From IMG/VR virus record IMGVR_UViG_2547132274_000008, positions 1 to 4,287 of that record: a DNA stretch of 4,287 nucleotides. The stretch is one strand, 5' to 3'. Every line of letters begins with the position of its first letter. The stretch's first letter is position 1. This DNA comes from a virus (taxonomy: Duplodnaviria > Heunggongvirae > Uroviricota > Caudoviricetes). The position numbers were made by a program, and so were the translations under genes. The notes beneath the pieces were generated by a model. The model saw only the letters and a program-made list of their open reading frames with translations. It ran no database searches and had not been told where the DNA came from. This document shows, piece after piece, positions 1-4,287 of this stretch.

Positions 1-5
1 GTTTC

Positions 6-581
6 ATGATGCAAATTAAAAAAATCACCAGTCCCCGCTACACCGAGTCCGGTGCGATTGACTGCGACGTGCTGTTTGAAGGAATGGAAGACCCGCTTCC
101 GTACACAGCCACGCCAGAAGACACCGCGACGACAGGTCAGCAAATCTGGCAGGAACTGCAAAGCGGCAAATGGGGAGAAATCGCCACGTTCACTGTCACG
201 CCGGAACTTATCGCCGCGGCGAAGGATGCCAAAAAACGAGAAATCGAGCTCTGGCGCACAGAACAGGAAGCGCAGCCGTTCACGTTCGAATGGAACGGTC
301 ACGCCTGGAACGGCGGTGCAGACTCAATAAGTCGTATTGCGCCTGTGGCAATGGCTGCAAAGGTGGCAGGTACGCGGTCAACGCTTGGATGGGGGGATGC
401 AGCAAATAACCTTGTCACACTGACAATGGCGCAGATTCAGGAGCTGGCAGCCGCGATGGCACAGGCGCAGATTGATCGCAATGACGAGATTTATCGCCGT
501 CAGCGACAGATGAAGAACGTGCTGGATAGCCTTAATAATCTTGCCGACATCCGCGCTTTTCAGGCTGGAGAGTCAGAATGA
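6..581 (+). CDS. Putative phage tail-fibre assembly / tail assembly chaperone-like protein (DUF4376-like C-terminal block); function tentative
   Basis: 191-aa ORF with ATG at 6 and a second in-frame ATG at 9. Codon usage is enterobacterial-like, with G/C-preferred third positions (acg, gcg, ccg, ctg). Its TGA stop overlaps the next start (ATGA at 578-581). The C-terminal segment WGDAANNLVTLTMAQIQELAAAMAQAQIDRNDEIYRRQRQMKNVLDSLNNLADIRAF resembles, from memory, the conserved C-terminal block of DUF4376 tail-fibre assembly/chaperone proteins. Only 5 nt precede the ATG and there is no in-frame stop in them, so the true start and RBS may lie upstream of the window. Confidence 0.7.
   Translation: MMQIKKITSPRYTESGAIDCDVLFEGMEDPLPYTATPEDTATTGQQIWQELQSGKWGEIATFTVTPELIAAAKDAKKREIELWRTEQEAQPFTFEWNGHAWNGGADSISRIAPVAMAAKVAGTRSTLGWGDAANNLVTLTMAQIQELAAAMAQAQIDRNDEIYRRQRQMKNVLDSLNNLADIRAFQAGESE
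567..572 (+). promoter_or_regulatory. Shine-Dalgarno site (GGAGAG) for the ORF starting at 578
   Basis: GGAG core at 567-570, 7 nt upstream of ATG 578, inside the 3' end of ORF1. Consistent with translational coupling. Confidence 0.55.
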
Positions 582-1291
582 AATGGGAAAAGGCAATTCT
601 GCGCCCGTCAGCCATGAACATTAAATGCTCTGTGGTTTGCCTTCATCCATGGTCAGAAAATACCGGAAACATCAAACCATCGGGGCGTTATCTCAGCCCC
701 GAAAATGCTGTATCTGCACTTTTACCCTATCTGAAAGAAAGCACAGAAAAAGACATTGTGGCGCTATTGTTTTGCGCTCCTTCTGCTGGCGAGTTTTTAT
801 CACTCGCCAGGCAATTTTCAGGCGCATTTCCATTGCCAGAGGTGGGGCGAATGTCCCGCATGATTTCCAGTCAACTTTCACTGGCCATCAGCAGAATGCA
901 AATCCCCGCCAGACCGGCAACATCACTTCCGGAACCGATAATGCTGTCGACACAGACCACTCGCAGCATGTCGCTGGCAGCAACCATTGCACAGGCAGCC
1001 ACTCCTGCCGCCACATCACCGGAAACATTGTCATCATCGCTGCATCAGTTCATGAATGCGAGAGATAAAGCCTTGCAGGAAATCGCTGATCAGCAGGCCG
1101 CACTCCGGCAAAAATTTTGCCCGGTGTGGCGCTTTTGCTACAAGGGAGCCCTTAGCCAGGCTGCAGTGCTGATACAAAAAAACATCCCACACCCCGAGTG
1201 GGTTTTTACAGCTGTGATGCTGTTCGTCGGCGATAATCTCTCATCACTAAGGGGAGCACTACATGACCCAGATGATTGTCCTTGCGCTTGA
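578..1291 (+). CDS. Hypothetical protein, Ser/Ala/Thr/Pro-rich with a low-complexity central region; no recognisable family
   Basis: 237-aa ORF. ATG 578 overlaps the ORF1 stop (ATGA) and has a GGAG RBS at good spacing. Its 3' end overlaps the ORF3 start by 29 nt. Codon usage is noticeably poorer than its neighbours (several AGA/AGG/ATA/CTA/CGA codons), and the central segment SQLSLAISRMQIPARPATSLPEPIMLSTQTTRSMSLAATIAQAATPAATSPETLSSS is low-complexity. Kept as a CDS because of the RBS and the operon packing, but it is the least certain of the four. Confidence 0.5.
   Translation: MKWEKAILRPSAMNIKCSVVCLHPWSENTGNIKPSGRYLSPENAVSALLPYLKESTEKDIVALLFCAPSAGEFLSLARQFSGAFPLPEVGRMSRMISSQLSLAISRMQIPARPATSLPEPIMLSTQTTRSMSLAATIAQAATPAATSPETLSSSLHQFMNARDKALQEIADQQAALRQKFCPVWRFCYKGALSQAAVLIQKNIPHPEWVFTAVMLFVGDNLSSLRGALHDPDDCPCA
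1249..1256 (+). promoter_or_regulatory. Shine-Dalgarno site (AAGGGGAG) for the ORF starting at 1263
   Basis: Strong purine-rich SD 6 nt upstream of ATG 1263, embedded in the 3' end of the preceding ORF. Confidence 0.6.
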
Positions 1292-1838
1292 CGGGGAAGC
1301 CATTCTGCTGCGCAACATCACCGTCAGCGCCACCATGCAACTACCGGACAAAGATATGTCCGGACAGTCAACCAGCACCACGAGCGCCCAGCAGGGAAAC
1401 AAGGCTAAAGAGCTGCGCGTGTCGGGGGTTATTGATTTTAACGATGAAGCTATTCTGACCCGTATTTTTCAGCTTGCGGAGGCAACAGAAAGCAACGGTG
1501 CCAAAAAAACATATCGCATTGCTAACGCTACCGCGAAGGCAATCAATATGCGACAGGGGGTGTTTTCTGGTGGCATTGATGCCACGGAACAACAGGGAAA
1601 AATGCACTGGCAGATCACCTTTACTCTCAGGGAAAAATTAAGCGTGCCAGAGAAAGCATCCGCACGCAGCGGTTCGCAGAAAACCATCGCCAGACAGCAG
1701 ACCCAGAATGGCAGCGAACAGGTACCAGACAAAGGCATGAATACGCAAAGTTCGTTCTGGAAAAAAATCAATGATGCCGTTGGCTCTGGTCTGGATGCTG
1801 TTGGCATCGGGAGCGTGAAAGAGGAAGGGAAAACATGA
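1263..1838 (+). CDS. Hypothetical protein (191 aa); no recognisable family
   Basis: ATG 1263 is preceded by a strong SD (AAGGGGAG, 6-nt spacer). Codon usage is typical of enterobacterial coding sequence. The TGA stop at 1836-1838 overlaps the next start (ATGA at 1835-1838). The protein is hydrophilic and Q/S/T/K-rich, with no motif I can assign. Confidence 0.7.
   Translation: MTQMIVLALDGEAILLRNITVSATMQLPDKDMSGQSTSTTSAQQGNKAKELRVSGVIDFNDEAILTRIFQLAEATESNGAKKTYRIANATAKAINMRQGVFSGGIDATEQQGKMHWQITFTLREKLSVPEKASARSGSQKTIARQQTQNGSEQVPDKGMNTQSSFWKKINDAVGSGLDAVGIGSVKEEGKT
1821..1830 (+). promoter_or_regulatory. Shine-Dalgarno site (GAGGAAGGGA) for the ORF starting at 1835
   Basis: Purine-rich GGAAGG/AGGGA run 4-6 nt upstream of ATG 1835. 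Confidence 0.55.
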
Positions 1839-3532
1839 AATTGATACAACGCTGCATGATTAATGGCGAACGGGTGGAAATTGCCGATATAAGCCTTGTT
1901 CTTACCCTGAATGCTGCCGGTCGTGGCTTCATTTCTGTTAACAATCTGTCACCCGAACACAGCCTTGCCGGCGCAATGGTACAAATTGATCTCGGCCGTG
2001 ACGGTGAAGCATGGCGCTATTTCTCCGGCTACATTGAGCGCGATCAACCTGCTGAAAATGGCTCACGTCGCCTTTTTATTCGTGAAGCGGCTGCTGTGCT
2101 GGATTTTGATTTCCCCTGCTCCATGCAACACCCGACGTTGCGGGGGGTACTCGATAATCTGGGGCGACAAAGCGGTATCGTTTTTATCACTCCGGATGCG
2201 GATTATGCCAGTATACCAACTCCCTACATCACCCACAGCGGCAGCGGAGCACAACTGCTCAGCCAACTGGGGCGAGCATTCAGTATCAGCGATTACGTCT
2301 GGCACCCTATGCCGGACGGTTCTGTATTTGTGGGAAGCGCAGCTGATTCACGATTTGCCAGTATTACAATGCCGGATATTCCGCAACAGTACACACTCGG
2401 GCAAAGCGGCGGAAACAGCATCGACATCATGTTTATGGAAACTGTGCGACCGGGCGTGAACCTACCGGCCGGGCGCATTACCCGTGTAGCCCTCAACAAC
2501 GAGAAAATGACCCTGACATGGGAGCGCCTTACCGCCACGGGTAACCCTGTTTCCAAATCACCATTACGCAGACAAATGGAAACACAGTTCCCGGAACTGG
2601 CCAGCGGTACGCTACATACCCGGCTGGCGCGCGTCATTGCGCCAACGGAGCCCACCACCCTGGGCGATGTGGCCGACAGTTTCCGCCCACGCTACGCCGT
2701 CGATGTGCAGTTGCTTGATGAGAACGGCAACGATAAAAGCGATACGCCCGTTTACCCGGCAGTACCGCTCCCCGTCCCCATGGCTGGCAGTGAGGCGGGA
2801 TGTTTTGCCTACCCGCCGGCTGGCACCATCGTGGAAATATCCAACATTGAAGGACGACCGGATAAACCTGTCATCAGGCAAATCTTACCCGCTGGTCATA
2901 ACCTGCCTGATGTAAAGCCCGGCGAACAATTGCAACAACAGCGCGCAGAAGTGTTTCAGCGTGTCACGACTGACGGAAGCTGGCACAGAGAAACCGACCA
3001 GCAAATCAGGGAGCATTCAGCCAGGCGAACCATTAACAGCGATCAGGAAGAACGCACAACAACAACCAGAACAACAACAGTACAGGCAAACGACATAACC
3101 AGCGTTCTGGGAACCAGCAAGCTGATGACAGGTCAGACAGAACACATTACTACTGGCCATTATGCGATCGCAGCCGGTGAGCATATCCAGATGGTAGCGC
3201 AGGATTTGCTGACTAAACTCAAAGGGGCGACATCCACCATCGAGCATAACCTCACCGAAAACGTGGGAGGCCGCAGAACATGCCGGGCGGACGGCGGCCT
3301 GGAATTTACCGCCCCGACTGTATTTATTGGGCGCGGTGGCTCACGGGAAAAATCCGGACTTAATCTGCTGACGTTGTTGATTGATATTCTGGATCTGGTT
3401 CAGTTGCTGGCCACACACACTGCAAACCACACCCACAGCAACACTGGCGCACCAACAAACAGCAGCGAACTTGCCGCAGACGCCCAACAGGCTACGAGCC
3501 TGCGCGAAAAATACGGCGACCTTATCGCCTAA
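1835..3532 (+). CDS. Hypothetical large protein (565 aa); possibly a phage structural spike/baseplate-like protein or a novel accessory protein; function unassigned
   Basis: Longest ORF in the window. ATG 1835 is coupled to the upstream stop and has an SD. Codon usage is good throughout. The TAA stop at 3530-3532 is followed about 40 nt later by a hairpin with a T-tract. C-terminal features include a Thr-rich stretch ERTTTTRTTTV, a segment with glycines every 7-8 residues (SVLGTSKLMTGQTEHITTGHYAIAAGEH) and the His-rich motif ATHTANHTHSNTG near the end. The embedded overlapping ORFs on both strands are treated as shadow ORFs. Confidence 0.75.
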   Translation: MKLIQRCMINGERVEIADISLVLTLNAAGRGFISVNNLSPEHSLAGAMVQIDLGRDGEAWRYFSGYIERDQPAENGSRRLFIREAAAVLDFDFPCSMQHPTLRGVLDNLGRQSGIVFITPDADYASIPTPYITHSGSGAQLLSQLGRAFSISDYVWHPMPDGSVFVGSAADSRFASITMPDIPQQYTLGQSGGNSIDIMFMETVRPGVNLPAGRITRVALNNEKMTLTWERLTATGNPVSKSPLRRQMETQFPELASGTLHTRLARVIAPTEPTTLGDVADSFRPRYAVDVQLLDENGNDKSDTPVYPAVPLPVPMAGSEAGCFAYPPAGTIVEISNIEGRPDKPVIRQILPAGHNLPDVKPGEQLQQQRAEVFQRVTTDGSWHRETDQQIREHSARRTINSDQEERTTTTRTTTVQANDITSVLGTSKLMTGQTEHITTGHYAIAAGEHIQMVAQDLLTKLKGATSTIEHNLTENVGGRRTCRADGGLEFTAPTVFIGRGGSREKSGLNLLTLLIDILDLVQLLATHTANHTHSNTGAPTNSSELAADAQQATSLREKYGDLIA

Positions 3533-3570
3533 TCACCGGGCATAAAATCCACATAAACGCCCCATCACGC

Positions 3571-3596
3571 AACGCACGGTTCAGGCCGTGCGTTTT
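3571..3596 (+). terminator. Candidate rho-independent terminator for the four-gene operon
   Basis: Inverted repeat AACGCACGG (3571-3579) / CCGTGCGTT (3586-3594) with loop TTCAGG, followed by TTTT (3593-3596) then CAT. The T-tract is short, so this is a moderate-strength terminator at best. Confidence 0.45.
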
Positions 3597-3655
3597 CATA
3601 TCTGCCACCTGATTAATGCGTTCTGCGTGCCATTCCGGCGCTGTATGCGCACACC

Positions 3656-3693
3656 ACGTAAACGGTGTGACGTAAAGCGTGAGGTGACGTAAA
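3656..3693. repeat. Three direct repeats of ACGTAAA (two extended to GTGACGTAAA)
   Basis: ACGTAAA at 3656-3662, 3669-3675 and 3687-3693. The second and third copies share the longer unit GTGACGTAAA (3666-3675 and 3684-3693). Read directly from the sequence. Confidence 0.6.
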
Positions 3694-3799
3694 CCGCGCT
3701 ACCCCCTCCAACCCGCGGGTTTTGTCTCGAAACACTTTTTCAGTTTTCTGCCGTGCAAAAATGACCGCCAGCCCGCGCAGCAACTGAGGGAAAAGCGAA

Positions 3800-4057
3800 G
3801 ATCTGAAATTTCACGTTTTGAAATTTTTTGCAGTTTTCAGAGGGATTTTTACGATCTCATGAATGGCAAGAGAAAGAAAACAGGCTGATATTAAAAGAGT
3901 TTTTATACTTTACGTGGGACAAGACACGATCGCGAAAGGATCGCGTTAAACAACCCTCAAACAAAGAAGCCCGACGTAGCGCGGCCTGCGCAAAATCAAG
4001 AGTCAGAATTAAACTGAAAAAAGGATCAATACCGCGCCTCGATCGCACATGACGATC
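3800..4057. other. Dense cluster of GATC (Dam methylation) sites in non-coding DNA
   Basis: By manual count, GATC occurs at 3800, 3853, 3928, 3939, 4024, 4041 and 4054, which is 7 sites in 258 bp. The preceding roughly 3.8 kb holds 8 sites (474, 1088, 1613, 1988, 2042, 3041, 3166, 3392). Confidence 0.6.
3804..3813. repeat. Perfect 10-bp palindrome TGAAATTTCA with an adjacent TGAAAT half-site copy
   Basis: TGAAATTTCA at 3804-3813 is its own reverse complement. An additional TGAAAT lies at 3819-3824 within an A+T-rich stretch. Operator-like, but no cognate regulator is identifiable. Confidence 0.5.
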
Positions 4058-4074
4058 TACGCAGCAACAGGACG

Positions 4075-4097
4075 AAAAAAACCGGCGCGAACGCCGG
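4075..4097 (-). terminator. Rho-independent terminator on the minus strand
   Basis: Read on the minus strand: stem CCGGCG, UUCG tetraloop, stem CGCCGG, followed by seven T (plus-strand A-run 4075-4081; stems at 4082-4087 and 4092-4097). A GC-rich stem, a classic stable tetraloop and a U7 tract make a textbook intrinsic terminator. Confidence 0.65.
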
Positions 4098-4138
4098 CGG
4101 AAGCATGTATCAAATGCGTGACTGAATAATGTCTGCGG
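4075..4138 (-). ncRNA. Candidate small RNA (about 60-65 nt) between a minus-strand promoter and the minus-strand terminator
   Basis: A sigma70-like promoter on the minus strand (see 4145-4174) would start transcription near plus coordinate 4137-4139, and the strong terminator ends at about 4075. The predicted transcript is 5'-CGCAGACAUUAUUCAGUCACGCAUUUGAUACAUGCUUCCGCCGGCGUUCGCGCCGGUUUUUUU-3'. This is purely a sequence prediction; I do not recognise it as a known sRNA. Confidence 0.2.
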
Positions 4139-4144
4139 TCGGGA

Positions 4145-4174
4145 ATTTTACATCAGAAGGCTGATAAGTCTCAA
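4145..4174 (-). promoter_or_regulatory. Candidate sigma70 promoter on the minus strand (-35 TTGAGA, 18-bp spacer, -10 TAAAAT)
   Basis: On the minus strand, TTGAGA (plus 4169-4174) and TAAAAT (plus 4145-4150) are separated by 18 bp. Each hexamer matches consensus at 5 of 6 positions. Confidence 0.3.
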
Positions 4175-4178
4175 CGGA

Positions 4179-4208
4179 TTGAAACAAGGGAAAAAACCAG
4201 GCTAGAAT
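4179..4208 (+). promoter_or_regulatory. Candidate sigma70 promoter on the plus strand reading out of the window (-35 TTGAAA, 18-bp spacer, -10 TAGAAT)
   Basis: TTGAAA at 4179-4184 and TAGAAT at 4203-4208 with an 18-bp A-rich spacer. The predicted start is near 4215 and the target gene would lie beyond the window end. It sits back-to-back with the minus-strand promoter candidate. Confidence 0.3.
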
Positions 4209-4287
4209 TCGCGCGGGTGCCTTTCGGCTGATGGCTGGAGGGTAAACCCGAAGGCCGGATGTGGAAAGGCCCCGAGTCAACTTTAAC

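Follow-up and report, generated by a model that had tools for sequence, protein, structure and literature searches.

A promoter paired with a terminator in an intergenic region is a classic predictor of small RNA (sRNA) genes, and one that often succeeds. To our knowledge, which includes the literature that we searched, the sRNAs so far described from prophages come mainly from lambdoid and Gifsy-type phages. Another group of small RNAs, IstR-1, OhsC, OrzO, and AgrB, is encoded upstream of and divergent from small membrane-toxin genes, and such divergent type I antitoxin sRNA systems need about 18-23 nt complementary to the mRNA of the toxin. The antitoxin of hok/sok-type loci, Sok, is cis-antisense. 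The closest studied relative of the locus described here, the hokW-sokW pair of the Stx2 prophage Sp5, is an experimentally shown type I toxin-antitoxin system (PMC8621323); sokW is reported there as a discrete RNA, detected by northern blot, in which 71 nt are complementary to the hokW 5'-UTR.

Here, we analyzed a 4,287-nucleotide stretch of phage DNA (the window; positions 1 to 4,287 of the Caudoviricetes record IMGVR_UViG_2547132274_000008), in which an earlier reading of the letters (here, the sequence-only reading) had proposed an sRNA gene on the minus strand at 4075-4174. The candidate resembles Sok and hokW-sokW in that it is a small, hairpin-terminated minus-strand RNA unit of the same cassette (about 65 versus 64-71 nt). 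Unlike Sok, it lies upstream of the hok start, has no hok complementarity, and has no match to Rfam family RF01794; a Sok-like RNA lies 130-250 nt to its right. Like IstR-1, OhsC, OrzO, and AgrB, it precedes a small membrane-toxin gene in divergent orientation, but it is without the 18-23-nt complementarity to the toxin mRNA that defines them. It also shares with DicF, IpeX, IsrK, STnc100, AgvB/AsxR, and PasA-D the form of a short promoter-to-terminator unit, free of an ORF, in the accessory region at a prophage end. Whereas those families are lambdoid or Gifsy-type and experimentally supported, the candidate belongs to a P2-like prophage, matches neither their sequences nor an Rfam family, and is a predicted RNA. 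The origin of the Pas sRNAs lies in Stx phages (bioRxiv 10.64898/2026.05.13.724894); these phages do not carry the segment, and the Pas sRNAs are therefore unrelated to it. Finally, the locus recalls moron cassettes: hok/sok has its own promoters, and on the minus strand a terminator-like hairpin marks its right edge and a strong terminator its left. In classic morons, however, the terminator lies downstream of the cargo and on the cargo strand; here it is on the opposite strand and upstream of the cargo promoter, and the hok cassettes of 933W and pVP444 have no such terminator.

Judging by its sequence, the strong, minus-strand-only Rho-independent terminator at the left border of the hok/sok cassette is certainly real. 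The unit as a whole, which belongs to a rare phage lineage, would at best be an unvalidated sRNA of the orphan prophage type or a terminator at a cassette boundary.

A P2-like prophage arm with a hok/sok locus

The window covers the right arm of a P2-like prophage and is closest, among complete genomes, to that of E. coli A36 (98% identical). From its left end, the A36 prophage encodes an integrase, a gpA-type replication endonuclease, and ParM/ParR-like partition proteins; it continues with ogr/Delta, portal and terminase genes, capsid genes O, N, M, and L, tail genes, and the stretch in the window, to the right of which lie a Hok/Gef gene and then the host gene serS. Within the window, the tail-region genes are plus-strand ORFs between 6 and 3532. 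No conserved ORF was found in 3533-4287, and a tRNA/tmRNA scan of the window detected nothing. The features on which the analysis rests are as follows.

3571-3600, plus strand: tail-operon terminator, hairpin AACGCACGG/CCGTGCGTT and a T run (-15.5 kcal/mol)
3790-4062, no strand: GATC-rich right part of a conserved non-coding core (core, about 3687-4052, common to Edwardsiella phages)
4080-4074, minus strand: U7 tract, directly 3' of the terminator hairpin
4098-4081, minus strand: terminator hairpin GCCGGCG-UUCG-CGCCGGU, seven pairs (six G-C and one G.U) with a UUCG loop (consensus scan)
4099-4139, minus strand: 5' body of the predicted RNA, about 41 nt, mostly unpaired; predicted start at about A4139
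4150-4145, minus strand: -10-like TAAAAT after an 18-bp spacer (consensus scan)
4174-4169, minus strand: -35-like TTGAGA (consensus scan)
4179-4208, plus strand: hok mRNA promoter TTGAAA-18-TAGAAT, divergent from the candidate promoter (consensus scan)
4215-4287, plus strand, cut by the window end: hok mRNA 5' leader; 4215 is position 1 of RF01794
About 4322-4265, minus strand (4265-4287 in the window): Sok-like antisense RNA, read from the A36 minus strand

A complete hok/sok-type type I toxin-antitoxin locus runs from the end of the window onward (4179-4287; 5646-6010 in copy L001). Cut as it is by the window end, the leader matches RF01794 with 20.2 bits; the full A36 locus reaches 38.6 bits (E 7e-7), and both scores lie below the gathering threshold of 59. 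An annotated Hok/Gef coding sequence (Pfam PF01848, 29.3 bits) starts about 74 nt past the window end. The hok leader is approximately 87% identical to the leaders of Stx phages 933W and VT2-Sakai/Sp5. The Sok-like unit consists of a promoter past the window (TTGCTC-17-TAACCT) followed by a 12-13-bp hairpin with a weak tail, CCUUUCC, which scores 1.5 versus 4.5-4.9 for the minus-strand terminator; this RNA is encoded on the same strand, about 170 nt upstream of that terminator.

We rejected the identification of the candidate itself with Sok on position, since the whole unit lies upstream of the hok start (predicted RNA at 4139-4074, hok mRNA from 4215, no overlap) and the Sok-like unit lies further to the right. 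An origin of the segment by duplication of the hok promoter or leader was likewise rejected, as repeats between them are not significant in either direct or inverted orientation.

The last ORF of the tail cluster (1835-3532, plus strand) encodes a 565-amino-acid protein that is hypothetical in all genomes seen and is 61% identical in Edwardsiella phages. It has a match in only 3 of about 185,000 species-representative genomes, namely, E. albertii and two Edwardsiella species (E. ictaluri and E. anguillarum), and the tail module is therefore rare. Upstream, a weak Rfam match to RsmY inside coding sequence (1181-1322, minus strand; 17.7 bits versus a gathering threshold of 57, E 0.35) was judged to be due to chance; a terminator-like palindrome at 1186-1202 was reported for both strands.

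The candidate unit and its distribution

The minus-strand terminator described in the sequence-only reading, a GC-rich hairpin with a UUCG loop and a U7 tract, was found by consensus scan exactly as described. It combines the two parts of an intrinsic terminator, a G+C-rich hairpin and a U tract on the transcribed strand, with a hairpin energy of -12.3 kcal/mol and a U-tail score of 4.5-4.9. The Sok-like and tail-operon terminators have U-tail scores of 1.5-2.3, and the minus-strand terminator is the best of the region; it is far beyond chance. Bidirectional action, also raised in that reading, is unsupported: read on the plus strand, the hairpin has A7 before it and GGAAGCATG, with no T run, after it, and the terminator is predicted to work in one direction only, on the minus strand.

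We compared 32 copies of the region, which are 85-99% identical and too alike for a covariation test of the hairpin. The terminator is kept in all 32, including six that have lost the -10 hexamer. The U tract ranges from 5 to 8 in length, and the stem is nearly invariant apart from the terminal pair, which is lost in L004 and in L016. In L039, a G.U pair has become A-U and a G-C pair has become G.U, so that pairing is preserved solely in the minus-strand RNA; because both changes are transitions, with a chance expectation of about 0.5, they do not demonstrate selection on the hairpin. The tail-operon terminator at 3571-3600 faces the minus-strand terminator from the other side of the non-coding core. 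Its hairpin, missed by the simple scan, is conserved, with a G-C to G.U stem change and loop changes in some copies.

The near-consensus minus-strand promoter (TTGAGA, 18 bp, TAAAAT) was also borne out, at 4174-4145. With 10 of 12 consensus matches, the same as the neighboring hok promoter, it is, by consensus match, a predicted sigma-70 promoter (hexamers at 16-18-bp spacing); its -10 hexamer lies about 46-47 nt from the terminator stem. Promoter-like sites are not enriched in the window (2 observed versus 2.8 +/- 1.6 in shuffles), and from site density we estimate the chance of such a site 30-300 nt upstream of a given terminator at approximately 0.03-0.09. The -10 hexamer is TAAAAT in 25 of the 32 copies, TAGAAT in 1, and TGCATA in 6; in the six TGCATA copies the hok allele is diverged and no other -10 lies in range. 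Carriers of TAAAAT include E. albertii NBRC 107761 = DSM 17582 (L009), E. coli A36, and STEC719; TGCATA is found in ECL27977 and STEC313. The -35 hexamer varies among relatives as TTGAGG, TTGGGG, and TTGACT. In the main group, the spacer is fixed at 18 bp, with 9 of 18 positions variable in the spacer versus 3 of 12 in the hexamers (a difference that is not significant); a constant length with a varying sequence suggests a working promoter. Conservation of TTGA in the -35 hexamer is uninformative, since the plasmid pVP444, which is without the terminator unit, has the same TTGA (as TTGACA) at the equivalent place upstream of hok.

The candidate and hok promoters stand back-to-back, with their -35 hexamers 4 bp apart and their transcription starts about 76 bp apart. 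A palindrome, TCAACGGATTGA (4171-4182), joins the hok -35 TTGAAA to the mirrored TTGA of the candidate -35 on the other strand, and pVP444 has a like arrangement (TCAACAGATTGA) upstream of hok. The palindrome may serve as a site for a regulator or as an upstream element in hok promoters.

Transcription from a purine 6-7 nt past the -10 hexamer would give an RNA of 63-66 nt. Its predicted fold is an open 5' part of about 40 nt followed by the terminator hairpin (-17.1 kcal/mol, z -1.9). The window thus holds the elements expected of an Hfq-dependent trans-acting sRNA (a 3' hairpin, a U tail of at least 6, and an accessible seed) in its U7 tract and open 5' 40 nt; in some copies the U tract is only 5-6 long, against the at least 6 of such sRNAs. 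In L034, the most diverged copy, divergence peaks in the RNA body (differences at 9 of 37 positions versus about 8% over the whole non-coding stretch), and that copy does not keep a small hairpin predicted for the body. We rejected a small protein gene: the sole minus-strand ORF (4110-4280, 56 amino acids) overlaps the hok leader and is reduced to 19 codons in six copies. An AUG in the RNA body opens a frame that runs through the terminator without a stop.

Two checks that had been put forward along with the sRNA proposal, an Rfam search and target prediction, lent it no support. Nothing in Rfam 15 covers 4074-4174 on either strand at E values up to 10, and pairing with 49 translation-initiation regions of the prophage is not significant (p 0.44). 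The candidate has no paralogue in 5,426 E. coli genomes, and neither its hairpin nor its body sequence was found in any paper of the literature searched. The proposal holds for the promoter-terminator architecture, of the kind sought by orphan-sRNA predictors, and for the prophage setting. A regulator role is weakened by 6 of 32 copies that keep the terminator without the -10 hexamer, by a -35 TTGA that is part of the palindrome with the hok -35, and by searches that gave no seed conservation, Rfam family, target, or antisense partner.

The hok part of the region (from about 4171-4187 onward) occurs in approximately 1,100 E. coli genomes as well as in Stx phages and plasmids. Of 5,426 complete E. 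coli genomes, 43 contain the segment at 4050-4170 (coverage is near full in 41), STEC and ETEC strains among them; it was also found in E. albertii, in 17 IMG/VR contigs, and in five metagenome contigs (anchor outside the candidate). No homologue of 3990-4178 was present among the phage records or plasmids searched. Whatever its function, few genomes have the locus: about 41 of the 5,426 complete ones of E. coli.

Phages of E. ictaluri and E. anguillarum keep the non-coding core (about 3687-4052) at approximately 70% identity and have a Hok gene in the corresponding position (PF01848, 44.9 bits). What varies is the junction between the core and the hok promoter, which spans about 120 nt in Escherichia and about 95 unrelated nt in E. 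ictaluri and is nearly empty in E. anguillarum. The approximately 95-nt indel between the Edwardsiella sequences is flanked by a direct repeat, GCGCAGAA (L029 1725-1846 versus L031 11095-11135), and sits exactly where the Escherichia phages hold the 120-nt terminator/promoter segment. Because both flanks, hok included, are present in Edwardsiella and the segment is absent, we take 4056-4178 (terminator, RNA body, and -10 hexamer) to be an Escherichia-lineage-specific filling of an indel-prone junction. The Edwardsiella relatives, being without the segment, also indicate that the phage core and hok/sok do not need it. A predicted promoter, 40 nt, and a terminator within a 120-nt insert have the look of a mini-gene.

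A possible boundary terminator and its alternatives

The reading that we favor, tentatively, is that a real, minus-strand-only boundary terminator stops leftward transcription from the hok/sok cassette and that the short RNA is a probable by-product. Leftward RNA could start at the promoter-like site that stands back-to-back with the hok promoter, or it could be read-through from the Sok-like antisense promoter past a terminator with a poor U tail. Between the terminator-like hairpin at the 3' end of hok and the minus-strand terminator, we found no minus-strand promoter other than these two. The suggestion in the sequence-only reading that the terminator might serve a longer transcript from beyond the window therefore stands in part: the Sok-like promoter past the window, with its weak-tailed terminator, could feed it, and is the only upstream minus-strand promoter found. 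The terminator would keep leftward transcripts out of the GATC-rich core and the tail operon, where they would be antisense. In copies with an intact -10 hexamer, the window included, an RNA of about 65 nt would still be made, as a by-product and not as a regulator with a conserved seed.

Several results point to a boundary terminator. The candidate promoter and the weak-tailed Sok-like unit are the sole candidate sources of minus-strand RNA between the terminator and the hok 3' hairpin, and the conserved non-coding core lies directly to the left. The terminator is one-directional, of top quality, and present in 32 of 32 copies, including the six without a -10 hexamer; the L039 stem substitutions pair only in the minus-strand RNA. 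The RNA body appears unconstrained in L034 (9 of 37 positions versus about 8%) and has no target or family, and the core is bracketed by a plus-strand terminator (3571-3600) and a minus-strand one. Other results argue against it. 933W, pVP444, and the Edwardsiella phages are without the terminator, so such a backstop is not a general need of hok/sok; on the same ground, its absence in 933W and pVP444, we rejected an upstream minus-strand terminator as a general requirement of hok loci. Read-through may be small, as sokW, which has the same tail, is detected by northern blot (PMC8621323). The 120-nt insert resembles a mini-gene, its -10 hexamer is intact in 26 of 32 copies, the one change among these (TAGAAT) is still consensus, and the spacer varies in sequence at constant length, as in a working promoter. 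The sequence shows the signals, their strand specificity, the hok/sok setting, and the lineage-specific presence of the segment; we infer tentatively that either promoter feeds the terminator and that insulation is its selected function. If the element is a boundary terminator only, it is a small and ordinary case of accessory-cassette insulation, useful for prophage annotation.

A true trans-acting sRNA of about 65 nt, independently transcribed in the lysogen from TTGAGA-18-TAAAAT as a non-coding moron of the Escherichia lineage, is possible, although we think it rather unlikely. Its open 5' 40 nt would pair with host or phage mRNAs, with the hairpin and U7 serving as an Hfq-type 3' module, an arrangement that we hold to be equally doubtful. 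The main support comes from the quality of the promoter, which at 10 of 12 matches equals the bona fide hok promoter, and from the gene-like modularity of the insert: a discrete, lineage-specific 120 nt whose flanking modules are adjacent or otherwise filled in Edwardsiella. The fold, an open 5' part plus a terminator with U7, fits as well, as do a -10 hexamer retained in 26 of 32 copies and an 18-bp spacing that stays constant as the spacer sequence varies. Against it stand 6 of 32 copies that keep the terminator but have no -10 hexamer, a body that is the most diverged part of L034 and does not keep its small predicted hairpin there, and a U tract down to 5 in some copies. Nor does the candidate have an Rfam family, a paralogue in 5,426 E. 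coli genomes, or significant pairing with hok mRNA (p 0.15 and 0.22) or with the 49 prophage initiation regions (p 0.44), and promoter-like sites in the window are at chance level. The fuller version, in which this non-coding moron of about 65 nt, lying between the Dam-site-rich region and hok/sok, is co-regulated with hok through the palindromic -35 pair and reprograms host or phage mRNAs in the lysogen, strikes us as more doubtful still. Should the RNA prove real and functional, P2-like prophages would gain an sRNA, and its gene would be an example of physical coupling to the promoter of a type I toxin.

It is improbable, in our judgment, that the unit is a relic, that is, a terminator left from a lost or replaced minus-strand gene or cassette on its right, with fortuitous hexamers and no current selection. 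The core/hok-promoter junction is an indel hotspot (120 nt in Escherichia, about 95 unrelated nt in E. ictaluri, almost nothing in E. anguillarum), promoter-like matches occur at chance level, and the copies are so alike that statistically supported constraint appears in no element. A relic is at odds with a hairpin and U tract intact in 32 of 32 copies versus 9 of 18 variable spacer positions. It is also at odds with the lack of any truncated-ORF trace before the terminator, where the one minus-strand ORF (4110-4280) extends over the hok leader and is interrupted in six copies, and with the lack of a homologue of the segment in another context among the E. coli genomes, phage records, and plasmids searched.

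A second, divergent antitoxin or regulator of hok mRNA, on the pattern of tisB/istR-1, shoB/ohsC, zorO/orzO, and dinQ/agrB, has little to recommend it beyond the divergent arrangement with starts about 76 bp apart, and we rejected an IstR/OhsC-type antitoxin as very improbable for lack of complementarity to hok mRNA: Watson-Crick runs with the full hok mRNA do not exceed 8 nt (p 0.22), shuffled sequences give duplexes as good as the best one (p 0.15), the segment has no significant direct or inverted similarity to the hok module, and the locus already holds a canonical cis-antisense Sok.

The non-coding core and the prophage end

The core to the left of the terminator is the more unusual feature of the two. 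Seven GATC (Dam) sites lie within 273 nt (3800-4057), against 0.93 expected, a number reached in 0 of 5,000 shuffles. Six of the seven are kept in Edwardsiella relatives of only about 70% overall identity, and two pairs (3928/3939 and 4041/4054) are spaced one helical turn apart. A search for RNA structure in the core at 3840-4062 gave a covariation term of about 0. The GATC cluster suggests a DNA-level, methylation-sensitive control or binding region.

The ORF-free core also contains repeats that look like protein-binding sites: three tandem copies of ACGTAAA(C/G)(C/G)G, and two direct copies and one inverted copy of TTTTT(G)CAGTTTTC, a set conserved in the Edwardsiella relatives. These motifs lie at 3656-3698, 3736-3748, 3826-3838, and 4011-4021. 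A P2-type cos motif is absent from the prophage at up to 3 mismatches.

At the other side of the cassette, the region downstream of hok is an accessory-gene hotspot. The cargo from hok to the prophage end varies among L001-L008 and is missing in one copy; the variants past hok are a DUF4875 gene, a Com/Mom DNA-modification module, a serine acetyltransferase gene, and genes for a zinc-ribbon protein and type VI secretion-associated proteins (TagO). A Mu-like transposable phage, considered on account of Com/Mom and the varied insertion sites, was rejected in view of the P2-like gene set with an integrase. These insertion sites are serS, flk, raiA, and copA, and in Edwardsiella the prophage lies beside tRNA-Leu.
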